A program made the position numbers and the translations under genes. Positions 6,074-12,330 of a stretch of DNA of 64,000 bases are shown piece after piece (the first letter of the stretch is position 1; each line of letters begins with the position of its first letter). The DNA is taken from NCBI GenBank assembly GCA_050260975.1, contig JBLNCV010000166.1, positions 830 through 64,829 on the forward strand, in the 5' to 3' direction. Under the pieces are notes generated by a model. It saw only the letters and a program-made list of their open reading frames with translations. It was not told the DNA's origin and made no database searches. The DNA is from Syntrophothermus sp. GTDB taxonomy: Bacteria > Bacillota > UBA5301 > JAMCQP01.

Positions 6074-7075
6074 CTAGTTTTCTGGCGGGGGCACTCGCCT
6101 GGCCCCCAGAAAACGGGCGGCATAATACGGGTCGTCCAGGCGGCTGACGATCACGCCTCGCCGGGACGAAGCATGTATGAATCTTCCCCGGCCCAGGTAG
6201 AGGCCCACATGTGATGGGCCGGGCTGGTAGGTGGTAAAGAAGACCAGATCCCCCCGGGTCAAGACATCTTTCGGAACTACCTGGGTCGCGGCGTACTGGG
6301 GCCCAGTCTCACGCGGCAAGGCGATGCCGTTCATGGCAAAGACCGTGTAGATCAGTCCCGAACAGTCGAATCCCTGCCGGCTGCGGCCCCCCCACCGGTA
6401 CGGCGCGCCGAGGAAGCGCTGGGCAGTGGCGACCAGATTATCGATGAAAGCGAAACGACCTTCTCTCCCGGCGAGGCTCATCTTCGAGGGGATCTCCCCG
6501 ACATCCAGCAGCTCCCGGTAGATCCAGCCCACCTCTCCCCCCGGGAGCGCTACTTTGATCCAGTCGCCGACCTCTCCGGCTATCCCGAGACGGGTATTCA
6601 AAAATACGTTGGTAAGTGGCGGGCTGAGCTTGGACGCCTCTGTGCGAACGACCGCCACATCCACTCTAACCGTGGCCATCTGCGTAAACCGGGACCAGTA
6701 CTCCGCCGGTGTGATGGCCGCCACCTCTTCCTTTTTGATCCAGCCAGCGGTATCGCCCTCCCCTGGCGCCAACACCAGCCACCAGCCTTCTTTTTCGGTA
6801 ACCATCGCCACCACGGTGTTCATCAGAAGCCGGATCGCTTCTTCCGCGCCTTCCGACGGGCGGATATGGACCATGGCCGCATTGACCTTCACCAGACCCT
6901 GCTGTGGCCCGGCTTGCTGCGGCCAGCCCGTTGACGATTCTTGCGCGTATGCCTGATCTGTTCCGCCGATCACGCCAGCGACACCGGCCTCCCCGGCCAA
7001 AAGCCCGGCCGCAAAAGTCAGGGCCAGTACAGTCCGAAAGAGCCCCGGAACCGCCCTTACCTTTGCCATTTGCAA
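6074..7075 (-). CDS. Secreted NlpC/P60 (C40) cell-wall peptidase with N-terminal SH3b-like repeats
   Basis: Signal peptide, then a C-terminal catalytic region FIDNLVATAQRFLGAPYRWGGRSRQGFDCSGLIYTVF...HVGLYLG with the Cys and His of the NlpC/P60 fold. Confidence 0.8.
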   Translation of the reverse strand: MQMAKVRAVPGLFRTVLALTFAAGLLAGEAGVAGVIGGTDQAYAQESSTGWPQQAGPQQGLVKVNAAMVHIRPSEGAEEAIRLLMNTVVAMVTEKEGWWLVLAPGEGDTAGWIKKEEVAAITPAEYWSRFTQMATVRVDVAVVRTEASKLSPPLTNVFLNTRLGIAGEVGDWIKVALPGGEVGWIYRELLDVGEIPSKMSLAGREGRFAFIDNLVATAQRFLGAPYRWGGRSRQGFDCSGLIYTVFAMNGIALPRETGPQYAATQVVPKDVLTRGDLVFFTTYQPGPSHVGLYLGRGRFIHASSRRGVIVSRLDDPYYAARFLGARRVPPPEN

Positions 7076-7818
7076 AGGCTCCTTTCCAGAAGTTGAATCA
7101 TCAGGTATAAAACCAGGCCAAGGAGGCTGAGCGCCACTACCGACGCAAACATCAACTCGTAATTGGCCCTGCCCCAGGCGTCCATGATCAGGTAGCCCAG
7201 CCCCGAATTGGTAGCAAAGGATTCGGCGAAGAACAGGACCGCAATGGCGGTTCCCACACTGATCCGCAGCGCGGTGAAGATCTTTGGCAAAGCAAATGGA
7301 AAGAGCACATGCCGGTAGATCTGACGTTCGCGCGCCCCCAGCGACCGCACGCTGTAGATTGCCGCCGCCGGCAAGGCCCGGACCGCGTCCCGGGTGGTGA
7401 CCAGGATCTGATAAAAGACCGTCAGGGTCACCAGAAAGATCCGGGAAGTGTCGCTCAACCCGAGCAATGTGAGCACAATGGGCAAAAGGACGATCTTGGG
7501 GATCGGATAGGTCAGGTAGAGAAACGGCGCCACCCAGGCATCCACTCTGGGATTCCGCCCCAGGTACAGGCCGAGCGGGACAGCACCGGCGAGCGAAACC
7601 ACCAGGCTCACGAGCACCCGCCGGGTACTGGCCAGGAAGTGCAAGAGCAACCCCTCCTGTTGGTTGGCAACCATCTCGTGTAAAACCGCCCAGGGCCCGG
7701 GCAGAGTCGGGGTCTGCAAGAGAAGGGAGAGCAACTCCCAGGCCATGAGCGCCACGACCAGTGTGGCCGCCATGGCCGTTACCTGCAATATATTAAGATC
7801 CGGCCCCGCTTGTTTCAT
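7057..7818 (-). CDS. ABC transporter permease (NitT/TauT, SsuC-like family)
   Basis: Six-TM binding-protein-dependent transport permease with an EAA-like loop (ESFATNSGLGYLI). Confidence 0.8.
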   Translation of the reverse strand: MKQAGPDLNILQVTAMAATLVVALMAWELLSLLLQTPTLPGPWAVLHEMVANQQEGLLLHFLASTRRVLVSLVVSLAGAVPLGLYLGRNPRVDAWVAPFLYLTYPIPKIVLLPIVLTLLGLSDTSRIFLVTLTVFYQILVTTRDAVRALPAAAIYSVRSLGARERQIYRHVLFPFALPKIFTALRISVGTAIAVLFFAESFATNSGLGYLIMDAWGRANYELMFASVVALSLLGLVLYLMIQLLERSLCKWQR

Positions 7819-8588
7819 CTGGCGCCACCCCCGGCGGCGGTCCCGGACAAGGAGAACAACTGCCGGCGAATGTACATCGCCTTCTCATAGAACCTGCCGG
7901 AGGCCCGGTAGGCCGGATCACCCATCCCCGGATTGTCCACAATCTCCAGGATCCGGCCCGGGCGTTCGGAAAAGACTATCACCCGCCGTCCCAAAAAGAC
8001 CGCTTCCTCGATATTGTGCGTCACCAGAAGGATAGTCATGCGCCGCTGGCGCCACAGTTCCAGGAGCAGGTTCTGCATGCGTTCGCGGGTTAGCGCGTCC
8101 AGAGCCGAAAAGGGTTCATCCATCAAGAGCAAGGACGGTTCGGTAACCAACGATCTGGCGATGGCCACGCGCTGCTTCTGACCGCCGCTCAATTCTTCGG
8201 GGTAGGCATCTTCCAGATCGGCGATGTCCAATTCCGCCAGGATCCGTCTGGCCCTGGCCAGCCCTTCCCGCCCGTTCATCCCCCGCAACTGGAGCCCGAG
8301 CAGCACATTCTGCCGGACCGTCTTCCAGGGAAAGAGCCCATAAGACTGCAAGATCAGGGCAATCTCCCGGTTCCGCTGGCCGGGGGGGGTTCCATGAAAC
8401 AGAATCCGCCCGCCGGTTGGATTCAGAAGCCCGGCGATCAGGTACAACAAGGTGCTCTTCCCGCAACCGGAGGGGCCGATGGCCGCCCAGGCCTCTCCGT
8501 CCGGGATCGTAAAGCTGACTCCGTCCAGCGCGGAAACCCTCCGGCCGGGAGTCGGGTATTCAAAGGCCAGATTCTCCACTTCGAGCAA
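7815..8588 (-). CDS. ABC transporter ATP-binding protein (SsuB/TauB-like)
   Basis: Walker A GPSGCGKST, signature LSGGQKQRVAIARSL, Walker B LLLMDEPFSALD. The start is moved to TTG at 8588, which has a GGAG 9 nt upstream; the 50-aa N-terminal extension in the ORF track would overlap the upstream gene. Confidence 0.8.
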   Translation of the reverse strand: MLEVENLAFEYPTPGRRVSALDGVSFTIPDGEAWAAIGPSGCGKSTLLYLIAGLLNPTGGRILFHGTPPGQRNREIALILQSYGLFPWKTVRQNVLLGLQLRGMNGREGLARARRILAELDIADLEDAYPEELSGGQKQRVAIARSLVTEPSLLLMDEPFSALDALTRERMQNLLLELWRQRRMTILLVTHNIEEAVFLGRRVIVFSERPGRILEIVDNPGMGDPAYRASGRFYEKAMYIRRQLFSLSGTAAGGGAR

Positions 8589-10625: not shown

Positions 10626-12116
10626 TCAGAACGTCCCTGGTCTGGGGGCCCGGTCCAGCTTTATGCCGTACTGGGACCATTTTCGGTCCACCAGTTCCTT
10701 GATCTCGGGGCTCATCCGGATCTCGTCCGGCCACTCCCTCTGGAACCCCTCCGACGGCCATTTGATGGTGGCGTCAATCCCCATCTTGGAACCGTACCTG
10801 GGCAACCGGGAAGCATGATCCAGCACGTCGATGGGGCCCTTGACAAAGGCGATGTCGCGCTCCGGATCAATGTTGTTGAAGACCTTCCAGATTACCTCCG
10901 ACGTGTCGTGGACATTTACACTGGCATCCACGACGACGATGATCTTGGTGGTCATCATCTGCGGCAGCCCCCAGAGGGCGTGCATGACCTTCTGAGCATG
11001 TCCGGGGTAGCTCTTGCGGATGGAGACGATGGCGCAGTTGTGGAAGACCCCCTCGATGGGCAGGTCCACATCCACAATCTCCGGAAGCATCAGCTTCATC
11101 AAAGGAAGAAAGATCCGCTCGGTGGCCTTTCCCAGATAGCAGTCCTCCATCGGCGGCTTTCCCACGATCGTGGCCGGGTAGATTGGGTTGCGGCGGTGGG
11201 TGATGCAGGTGATGTGAAAGACCGGGTACTCATCGGCCAGGGAATAATACCCGGTATGATCCCCGAACGGCCCCTCGGTCCGCAACTCCTCGGCATCCAC
11301 GTAGCCTTCCAGCACGATCTCCGCACCGGCCGGCACCTCCAGATCCACCGTCCGGCATTTCACCAGCTCCACCGGGGCCTTGCGCAAAAAGCCCGCGAAA
11401 AGCAGTTCGTCCACCTCTTTCGGCAGAGGAGCGGTAGCTGCGTAGATTGTAGCCGGATCCGCGCCGATGGCCACCGCCACCTCCATGCGCTTCCCGAGGC
11501 GTTTGGTCTTGCGGAAGTTCTCCGCGCCGTCCTTGTGAATATGCCAGTGCATTCCGGTAGTTAACCCGTCGTAGACCTGGAGGCGGTACATCCCCACGTT
11601 ACGGCGGCCGGTCTCCGGATCTCTGGTGAAGACCAGCGGTAAGGTGATAAAGCGTCCCCCGTCGCCGGGCCAGCTTTTGAGAATCGGAAAACGCTCTAAA
11701 GTGGCGCCCTCTTGCGGCATGAGCACCACTTCCTGGCACGCCCCGCGCCCCACCACCTTTGGGAAAAAGCTGGCCAGCTCGGCCAGTTTCGGGAGCGCCT
11801 GCAGCTTGCCGAACAGCCCGGCCTGGCCCACCTCGGAAGAAAGTTCGATGAGGCCGGTGATCTCTTTGCCGATCTCGTCGAGGTTCTCCACCTCCAAAGC
11901 CATCTCCATGCGGCGAAAAGACCCGAAGGCGTTCATCAACACCGGAACGTCAAAGCCCTGTACATTTTCAAATAAAAGAGCCGGGCCCTCGGCCTTGGAA
12001 ACTCGATCGGTAACCTCGGTGATCTCCAGATCCCTGTCCACCGGCGCCTTGACCCGCACCAACAACCCTTCGCGGTCCAACCGCGCCATGAATTCTCTCA
12101 GATCCTGATACGCCAT
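10626..12116 (-). CDS. UbiD-family decarboxylase (3-polyprenyl-4-hydroxybenzoate decarboxylase / MqnL-like)
   Basis: Aligns along its length with UbiD proteins (MAYQDLREFMARLDREGLLVRVKAPVDRDLEITEV...). Start placed at ATG 12116, with AAGGGAAGGGG upstream. Confidence 0.85.
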   Translation of the reverse strand: MAYQDLREFMARLDREGLLVRVKAPVDRDLEITEVTDRVSKAEGPALLFENVQGFDVPVLMNAFGSFRRMEMALEVENLDEIGKEITGLIELSSEVGQAGLFGKLQALPKLAELASFFPKVVGRGACQEVVLMPQEGATLERFPILKSWPGDGGRFITLPLVFTRDPETGRRNVGMYRLQVYDGLTTGMHWHIHKDGAENFRKTKRLGKRMEVAVAIGADPATIYAATAPLPKEVDELLFAGFLRKAPVELVKCRTVDLEVPAGAEIVLEGYVDAEELRTEGPFGDHTGYYSLADEYPVFHITCITHRRNPIYPATIVGKPPMEDCYLGKATERIFLPLMKLMLPEIVDVDLPIEGVFHNCAIVSIRKSYPGHAQKVMHALWGLPQMMTTKIIVVVDASVNVHDTSEVIWKVFNNIDPERDIAFVKGPIDVLDHASRLPRYGSKMGIDATIKWPSEGFQREWPDEIRMSPEIKELVDRKWSQYGIKLDRAPRPGTF

Positions 12117-12330
12117 AAAAACCCCTTCCCTTTGTGCCCATCCATATTTATTTGGCGGTCTGTCCCGCAAATCCTTCCCGGAGCGGAATTTTCTTCGGAA
12201 AGAGCTTGCCCGGCCCGTCGGATCCCATTTTTTGGCCGATTTTCGGCCACAGTCATTTTGACAAGTTGGACAACGTAGAATATTCTATACTTGTATTAAC
12301 TTGTACCACAATATTTGAGGGGGCGAGAGA

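Follow-up and report, generated by a model that had tools for sequence, protein, structure and literature searches.

Many anaerobes of guts, sediments and digesters are quinone auxotrophs whose growth depends on precursors made by their neighbours. Salvage of 1,4-dihydroxy-2-naphthoate (DHNA) through the prenyltransferase MenA occurs in quinone auxotrophs, e.g., lactic acid bacteria and group B streptococci. In this type of salvage, a soluble naphthoate is taken up and then prenylated, and the importer has not been assigned (PMC10746273). Routes of quinone uptake were described as 'yet to be identified' as of 2023 (PMC10746273). Importers for soluble precursors of menaquinone (MK) have been predicted and 'remain to be annotated' (Ravcheev & Thiele 2016, PMC4746308), and our literature search turned up no publication in which MK-precursor uptake is attributed to a transporter. 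The salvage importers of the thiamine pyrimidine, ThiXYZ/ThiY, follow the same logic, with a soluble ring precursor imported for a cofactor pathway. Here we describe a minus-strand run of six co-directional genes in a 64,000-nucleotide stretch of DNA from Syntrophothermus sp. (contig JBLNCV010000166.1; hereafter the window). The run encodes, in the order of transcription, a UbiD-like decarboxylase, a UbiA-like prenyltransferase, the extracytoplasmic substrate-binding protein (SBP), ATPase and permease of an ATP-binding cassette (ABC) importer, and an NlpC/P60 peptidase, as identified with Pfam and NCBIfam models. We put at about an even chance that this operon serves MK head-group salvage, i.e., that the importer takes up a soluble naphthoate-type precursor and is coupled to an MqnP-like prenyltransferase and MqnL. 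By analogy, the system would be another ABC importer for precursor salvage, comparable to ThiXYZ, with the MK head group as its new cargo.

The first two genes are similar to the late-step genes mqnL/mqnP (with mqnM and menG) of the futalosine route (PMC4746308), and orthologous UbiD and UbiA genes are found in the same order and adjacency in the futalosine operons of Thermodesulfitimonas autotrophica (L174) and Heliomicrobium modesticaldum (L176). The UbiD homologue contains all three Pfam domains of the family (Table 1). It passed the equivalog model of the menaquinone biosynthesis decarboxylase, TIGR03701 (662 bits, cutoff 495.9), and missed the E. coli-type UbiD model for 4-hydroxy-3-polyprenylbenzoate (452 bits, cutoff 788). 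The nearest solved structure is that of E. coli UbiD (2idb/5m1b, E 8e-124). The protein is 64–67% identical to the UbiD proteins of the futalosine operons L174–L176, and five transporter-linked UbiD homologues at other loci also pass the MqnL equivalog (644–662 bits). Judged from its sequence, it is an ordinary member of the MqnL family and the predicted decarboxylase of prenylated dihydroxynaphthoate.

The UbiA homologue matched PF01040 with 192 bits, and both Asp-rich motifs (NRLADAELD and QDVAFD) are readable. It passed the general model TIGR01475 (326 bits, cutoff 180.8), and its best named models were PRK12886 (354 bits) and MqnP_DT (323 bits), compared with 129 bits for proteobacterial UbiA and no hit to the MenA models. 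The nearest solved structure is ApUbiA (4od4). Its gene is located directly downstream of mqnL, and the protein is 57–59% identical to the UbiA proteins of the futalosine operons. Because of the 64–67% and 57–59% identities to pairs within futalosine operons, the two enzymes are assigned as MqnL and MqnP of the futalosine route, following published naming (PMC4746308). The original prediction had placed the pair in the late quinone-ring steps in general. The model scores and the futalosine-operon orthologues bear this out and narrow it to the MqnL/MqnP type, as distinct from the ubiquinone enzymes UbiD/UbiA and from MenA.

Many database records label the UbiA homologue as 4-hydroxybenzoate polyprenyltransferase, in line with an alternative in which the UbiA/UbiD pair is fed with an imported benzoate (4-hydroxybenzoate or p-aminobenzoate (pABA)) or the importer serves folate synthesis. 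Folate genes near related clusters also point in this direction, with folP-folBK directly upstream in L088–L090 and folB and folE nearby in Moorella L173. We nevertheless regard benzoate import as quite improbable: the UbiD homologue passes the MK equivalog and not the 4-hydroxy-3-polyprenylbenzoate model, the same enzyme pair occurs in futalosine operons, and the MenA-linked loci described below cannot use benzoate. To our knowledge, ubiquinone is not made by Bacillota.

For comparison of the gene order, futalosine operons were located by picking orthologues of the window UbiA and then retrieving their loci. The operon in L174 and L176 is arranged as UbiE-type methyltransferase (menG)-UbiD-UbiA-radical SAM/CofH_C-VitK2_biosynth-radical SAM/CofH_C, and the VitK2_biosynth gene of L174 is labelled as chorismate dehydratase (MqnA) by its sources. 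The locus of Metallumcola (L175) has polyprenyl synthase, UbiD, UbiA, and VitK2_biosynth, the last being its only early-gene neighbour. In L174 and L176, mqnP is thus followed by the early genes mqnE/mqnC/mqnA, whereas in the window, the close relative L004, Moorella L173 and others, the same slot is occupied by the SBP-ATPase-permease genes. Since the importer takes the operon position of mqnE/mqnC and mqnA in related Bacillota, it looks like a salvage substitute for, or a supplement to, de novo head-group synthesis.

No early futalosine gene was detected by tblastn with the L174/L176 queries in the window or in any of ~170 transporter loci. In a family-count scan of 27 further open reading frames (ORFs) at 38–64 kb of the window, VitK2_biosynth and Flavoprotein were not among the top 25 of 59 families. 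The source genome may lack the early futalosine genes mqnA, mqnC, mqnD, and mqnE. Ammonifex, Desulfovirgula, Thermincola, and Pelotomaculum were among the 120 best matches listed in a protein search with MqnA; Syntrophothermus and Moorella were not, but heliobacteria, which have MqnA, are missing from the same 120 matches, so this absence proves nothing. A search of the literature on the completeness of the MK pathway in Syntrophomonadaceae returned nothing usable. Unlike in the futalosine late-step sets, menG and ubiX are outside the window operon and absent from the entire 64 kb. The original prediction had noted that no flavin prenyltransferase gene is adjacent; this is true here, and tblastn detected no UbiX homologue across the window. 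In many relatives, ubiX is placed exactly between mqnP and the SBP gene.

The conservation of the gene neighbourhood was examined at 160 SBP-family loci, 80 obtained by scanning GTDB, one genome for each species, with an alignment of the SBP family and 80 from a metagenome scan. The neighbouring ORFs were clustered, and the commonest clusters were annotated. MK late-step genes, namely those for MqnL, MqnP-like protein, UbiX, MenG, or the classical-pathway MenA, lie beside the transporter at 38 of the 160 loci (26 of the 97 with enough flank). Leaving aside the three transporter genes, MenA, TetR, and UbiD (tied with PBP) headed the list of neighbour families by frequency, followed by MqnP-like UbiA, and the commonest UbiA-family neighbour cluster was identified as MenA (NF004751, 338–358 bits, cutoff 264). 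When 126 neighbour ORFs of the MenA-linked loci were scanned for menB-F, LysR models filled the match list.

About 20 gene layouts were counted, of which at least 10 remained after contig-truncated fragments were set aside. In addition to UbiD-UbiA-SBP-ATPase-Perm, which is also the layout of Moorella L173 (reached independently via the UbiA search), they include UbiD-UbiA-UbiX-SBP-ATPase-Perm and UbiD-UbiA-UbiX-multihaem cytochrome-SBP-ATPase-Perm-SRPBCC. UbiA follows the transporter in UbiD-SBP-ATPase-Perm-UbiA (L058 and L071), and menG directly follows the permease gene in mqnL-mqnP-SBP-ATPase-Perm-menG (four loci; L115, L132, L156, and L163). At L147, SBP-ATPase-Perm is located between UbiA and UbiD, both on the opposite strand. 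A layout without UbiD is UbiA-SBP-ATPase-Perm-EamA, and the MenA-linked form is TetR-ATPase-Perm-MenA (opposite strand)-SBP, found at 13 loci. Genera with MenA-linked transporters include Desulforamulus, Formimonas, Gracilibacter, and Desulfitispora, and linked transporters are also found in the L016, L029, and L044 metagenome-assembled genomes. The transporter is flanked on both sides by MK genes in L058, L071, L115, L132, L156, and L163. A neighbour-joining tree built from 104 non-redundant SBPs places the linked proteins in separate pure clades, 9 for Mqn and 5 for MenA. Whichever MK pathway is involved, the constant partner is the prenyltransferase for which the soluble head group is a substrate (MqnP-like or MenA). 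A juxtaposition that is not conserved had been preset as refuting the proposed tie between the enzyme pair and an NMT1/SsuA-type importer; it was found to be conserved, recurring over many lineages and gene orders, and is no accident of this genome. Compared with the DHNA salvage systems, the window pair belongs to the futalosine route, and it is a sister clade of the window transporter that adjoins MenA. As far as our literature searches reach, this combination, with an importer standing in place of the ring-building genes and an association that extends to MenA, is undescribed.

The transporter has the components of a NitT/TauT-type system: an exported SBP of the NMT1/SsuA fold, a BPD_transp_1 permease, and an ATPase in which Walker A (GPSGCGKST), the signature (LSGGQ), and Walker B (LLLMDEP) are readable. 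None of the NCBIfam cutoffs for sulfonate, taurine, nitrate, or methionine systems was reached. The SBP scored 77 bits against SsuA_fam (TIGR01728, cutoff 163.5), the best NCBIfam match of the ATPase was TauB-like (219 bits, cutoff 357), and the permease gave SaoP-, TauC-, and SsuC-like matches, each below its cutoff, while the MetI model gave 25 bits (cutoff 212). The SBP family comprises 382 representative clusters at E<=1e-30. From these sequence comparisons, we classify the SBP-ATPase-permease set as a NitT/TauT-class ABC importer belonging to no characterised subfamily.

It is unlikely, in our assessment, that the cargo is an unrelated nutrient (sulfonate/taurine, nitrate, or methionine) and that the MK genes are neighbours of the transporter by inheritance or chance. 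SsuABC/TauABC share the transporter class and domain set, and within NCBIfam the ATPase and permease match their models (the TauB/TauC/SsuC types) best. For the SBP, weak hits to SsuA_fam and NlpA were obtained, its NCBI name is 'MetQ/NlpA family', and most family members stand alone. However, all of the curated cutoffs were missed, those for SsuA_fam, TauB, and MetI widely, and there are no sulfur-assimilation genes beside the window cluster. In addition, no genes neighbour the transporter more often than the MK late-step genes, which occur in about 10 gene orders, with two non-orthologous prenyltransferases, and in 14 clades, and at the six loci listed above the transporter is located between MK genes.

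No close solved structure was found for the SBP family; the best sequence matches in the PDB were 3qsl (E 5e-7) and PqqT (E 8e-7), with ~20% identity. An AlphaFold (AF2) model built from 64 homologues had a predicted local distance difference test (pLDDT) value of 92.4, and its Foldseek neighbours were 3un6, TauA, PqqT in complex with pyrroloquinoline quinone (PQQ), ThiY, a thiamin-binding SBP, SsuA, and Thi5. Among the solved relatives (PqqT-PQQ, ThiY with a salvage product of the thiamine pyrimidine, TauA, and SsuA), the ligands are small anions or planar molecules of the cofactor type, and the window SBP may, by analogy, bind a ligand of this sort. ThiXYZ/ThiY (NMT1/THI5 fold, PDB 3ix1) is also a NitT/TauT-type importer with the same SBP fold (Foldseek E 8e-15), although ThiY is only 13% identical to the window SBP, and the window cluster lacks a thiamine pyrophosphate (TPP) riboswitch and is linked to quinone prenylation rather than to thiamine genes. 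Rfam searches found neither TPP nor flavin mononucleotide (FMN) riboswitches in the window or in 15 related loci. The original prediction allowed an imported aromatic or pyrimidine-like precursor. The aromatic part is the best-supported reading, whereas the pyrimidine part is disfavoured by the missing TPP riboswitch and by the prenyltransferase as the constant partner.

PqqT of Methylorubrum, a periplasmic protein (PDB 9b1u, 9b1v, and 9ooz; PMC11331073), is among the closest solved proteins by both sequence and fold (TM 0.65–0.75), and its ligand PQQ is a carboxylated quinone cofactor, although the gene context is different. K142 of PqqT contacts PQQ (PMC11331073). Tyr161 of PqqT (in 'LLYWQF', probed in the 9ooz variant) aligns to the invariant 'LPDP' motif of the window family, and the residues differ. 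Residues that are invariant or nearly so in all groups of the SBP family are S85, D104, E131, R133, F134, S158, N160, R192, P207, D208, P209, and W314. The triad E88-R89-D90 is kept in 23 of 24 Mqn-linked and 75 of 79 unlinked SBPs, while R89 and D90 are substituted in all 15 MenA-linked SBPs. This pattern is compatible with related but different ligands and would fit isomers with the carboxyl group at position 6 or position 2.

The binding of a free quinone cofactor by the PqqT fold bears on another alternative, in which the cargo is a soluble quinone or electron shuttle (2-amino-3-carboxy-1,4-naphthoquinone (ACNQ), menadione, or another naphthoquinone) that is used directly or detoxified by prenylation. 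A multihaem cytochrome gene inside the cluster with an SRPBCC gene after it (L084, L091, and L092) is consistent with this idea, as are the TetR regulators, EamA exporters, and bacilliredoxin that recur beside the transporter and are typical of responses to redox-active aromatics. Shuttle uptake is nonetheless distinctly unlikely in our judgement, as the steady partners are a biosynthetic prenyltransferase, the decarboxylase, UbiX, and MenG, and the decarboxylase linkage implies a carboxylated substrate.

UbiD needs prenylated FMN (prFMN), and NMT1-type SBPs include predicted riboflavin binders. Import of flavin for prFMN synthesis (RibXY-like), or of a corrinoid-related compound in view of a cobalamin riboswitch upstream of the transporter in two heliobacteria, is very improbable. 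The FMN riboswitch is missing from the window and from the 15 loci scanned, and the MenA-linked and UbiA-only loci have no need of prFMN. The heliobacterial riboswitch belongs to a decayed gene and is adjacent to the transporter at no other locus. Rfam detected this riboswitch in Heliobacterium chlorum, a short distance upstream of the stand-alone transporter, and a covariance model made from two copies and run over 80 loci and the window located it beside the transporter in the two heliobacteria and nowhere else. Corrinoid import was dropped as a candidate because the B12 riboswitch has its own terminator, followed by a truncated ThiC/BzaB-like ORF, a decayed lower-ligand gene. The cobalamin riboswitch and its intrinsic terminator lie at L017:9383-9920 and L018:8889-9890, and the truncated ORF in L018 retains the N-terminal ~130 of ~430 aa. 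Together they look like a remnant of an anaerobic B12 lower-ligand gene.

In the proposed head-group salvage, other microbes would release a soluble bicyclic precursor of the MK head group, probably anionic and possibly 1,4-dihydroxy-6-naphthoate or a close naphthoate/naphthoquinone analogue, and the SBP would capture it. The permease and ATPase would carry it into the cytoplasm at the expense of ATP, the membrane-bound MqnP-like prenyltransferase would add the polyprenyl tail, and MqnL, with prFMN provided by a UbiX encoded elsewhere, would remove the carboxyl group. A MenG methyltransferase encoded elsewhere would then complete MK. The ligand and the inward direction of transport are thus presumed. 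This reading is favoured because the constant partner is a head-group-consuming prenyltransferase, because of the position in the operon slot, and because of the fold precedents for planar carboxylated cofactors and precursors. The source organism, Syntrophothermus, is a heat-loving fatty-acid degrader, and MK is the membrane electron carrier for reverse electron transport in syntrophic fatty-acid oxidisers. Syntrophomonadaceae rely on MK for reverse electron transport (PMC3582634).

Several observations weigh against head-group salvage. The UbiA homologue does not reach the cutoffs of the MqnP models, i.e., MqnP_DT (323 versus 430), MqnP_SCO4491 (303 versus 420), and MqnP_Cj_Hp (237 versus 375), which are lineage-specific NCBIfam 'exception' models. 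About three quarters of the SBP-family members stand alone in unrelated contexts. Stand-alone copies are present in Thermincola, Pelotomaculum, Desulfovirgula, and D. copahuensis, with MqnA in the genus, and in two Heliobacterium species, while Heliomicrobium has the full mqn operon. Possession of the transporter is thus not a trait of auxotrophs alone. The folate genes near the cluster in two lineages make a benzoate such as pABA possible as the ligand there. At low pH, DHNA-type acids can cross membranes without a transporter.

As a tentative extension, which we consider possible but would not presume, the family could be a dedicated MK head-group importer with clades for 1,4-dihydroxy-6-naphthoate and for DHNA that has replaced de novo synthesis in the Syntrophothermus lineage and perhaps in Moorella; these syntrophs and acetogens would then be precursor auxotrophs living on cross-feeding. 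If head-group import is true, the transporter would be a genomic marker for quinone-precursor cross-feeding, would account for genomes that hold the late MK steps only, and would help in bringing 'unculturable' anaerobes into culture and in engineering MK production. The soluble binding protein and commercially available ligands make the importer claim directly testable, and the answer bears on quinone-precursor uptake in cross-feeding.

Coordinates of the cluster and of other features in the window are shown in Table 1. The six minus-strand genes with short or overlapping junctions, as originally predicted, were confirmed by domain scans, by the sequence, and by independent gene calls, and the same six genes are present in the independent calls of three further assemblies from the same organism. 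In the 5'-to-3' direction of the operon, the junctions are gaps of 55, 36, and 38 nt followed by overlaps of 4 nt (ATGA) and 13 nt, and no terminator-like site was found in any intergenic gap of the cluster. The spacing and overlaps suggest that the six genes are co-transcribed. The cluster start had been placed at 12170, which corresponds to the TTG of the longest ORF. The ATG at 12116 is preferred instead, as it has a ribosome-binding site (RBS), GGGAAGGGG, and agrees with the independent 496-aa calls.

Table 1 Positions of the cluster genes, their boundaries, and other features in the window.
Feature	Position	Strand	Evidence or remark
Intergenic region; presumed operon promoter and promoter of the divergent acyl-CoA ligase gene	12117..12330	.	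Sequence
mqnL, UbiD-family prFMN-dependent decarboxylase, 496 aa	10626..12116	-	UbiD_N, UbiD, UbiD_C; TIGR03701
mqnP-like UbiA-family polyprenyltransferase, 295 aa	9683..10570	-	PF01040; TIGR01475
Extracytoplasmic SBP of an uncharacterised NitT/TauT-type subfamily, 339 aa, N-terminal signal/anchor	8627..9646	-	NMT1, NMT1_2, Lipoprotein_9
ABC ATPase, 257 aa	7815..8588	-	ABC_tran; start according to an independent 257-aa gene call
ABC permease, 253 aa	7057..7818	-	BPD_transp_1; start overlaps the ATPase stop (ATGA)
Secreted SH3b-SH3b-NlpC/P60 cell-wall peptidase, 331 aa	6074..7069	-	NLPC_P60, SH3; 13-nt overlap with the permease gene
Acyl-CoA ligase gene, divergent, upstream boundary of the cluster	12331..13995	+	
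77-aa ORF, convergent on the NlpC/P60 gene, downstream boundary	5810..6043	+	Strong RBS
1101-aa protein with 5'-nucleotidase C-terminal domains	2405..5710	-	
LytS-type sensor kinase	552..2240	-	5TMR-LYT, GAF, His_kinase
NuoL/M/N-type antiporter subunits and neighbours	20450..30260	-	Two subunits scanned
tRNA cluster (2 tRNAs)	18693..18856	-	Rfam
tRNA cluster (3 tRNAs)	30663..30918	-	Rfam

The intergenic region upstream of mqnL is ~85–90% conserved in comparison with L004 and contains one sigma-70-like site, which serves the plus-strand gene. A perfect hairpin at 12233-12249 was considered as an operator and dropped, as it is not conserved in L004. Rfam gave no match over 5700-12400, even at E<=1. 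A hairpin after the NlpC/P60 stop codon was rejected as an intrinsic terminator, its stability being no better than that of shuffled sequence (z -0.68). The 77-aa ORF at the downstream boundary shows 44% identity to its L004 counterpart, with no Pfam hit on record.

The last gene of the run encodes a protein that matched PF00877 with 113 bits as well as SH3_3 and SH3_4, with the catalytic motifs FDCSGL and SHVGLY and an N-terminal hydrophobic signal. The original prediction treated this gene as part of a meaningful unit, a view that the comparison does not sustain: it adjoins the transporter only in the window and in L004, and the gene is a lineage-specific passenger.

Other genes were observed around the transporter in relatives. 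In L084, a ~282-aa multihaem c-type cytochrome is encoded between ubiX and the SBP gene (9095-9943) and an SRPBCC/Polyketide_cyc2 protein after the permease (12552-13010), with the same arrangement in L091 and L092, and two further multihaem cytochrome genes are present within 5 kb of the L084-type cluster. In Heliomicrobium, the mqn operon is preceded by an SRPBCC gene unrelated to that of L084 (L176:3930-4415). Genes for a monothiol bacilliredoxin (BrxC) and for an EamA-family permease flank the stand-alone transporter in L015, L022, L025, L035, L036, L038 (Desulfosporosinus), and L066, and the same EamA cluster precedes TetR at the MenA-linked Formimonas locus. Lyase_aromatic, Pterin_bind (folP-like), and FolB/HPPK genes are located directly upstream of UbiA-SBP-ATPase-Perm-EamA at L088:458-8829 and L090:1262-9585, while in Moorella (L173:6740-7699) folB and the GTP cyclohydrolase I gene are just upstream of ubiD. 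Contigs binned as 'Chitinophagales' (L006) and 'Betaproteobacteria' (L008) carry the same Firmicute-type ubiD-ubiA-ubiX-cytochrome-transporter cluster as the 'Aneurinibacillus' metagenome-assembled genome L007 and are probably mis-binned; one of these three comes from the same sample series as the window organism.

Downstream of the cluster, the 5'-nucleotidase-domain protein and the LytS-type kinase are kept in the same order in L004. At 38–64 kb, the families include two DUF3786 proteins, a BcrAD/BadFG-type ATPase, a PnrA/Bmp-type ABC importer set, EPSP synthase, DnaB helicase, and a TPR protein. The two tRNA clusters are the sole Rfam matches in the window. The genes for NuoL/M/N-type antiporter subunits and their neighbours resemble an 11-subunit complex-I-like operon, which would encode an MK-using enzyme ~8 kb from the mqnL-mqnP operon.

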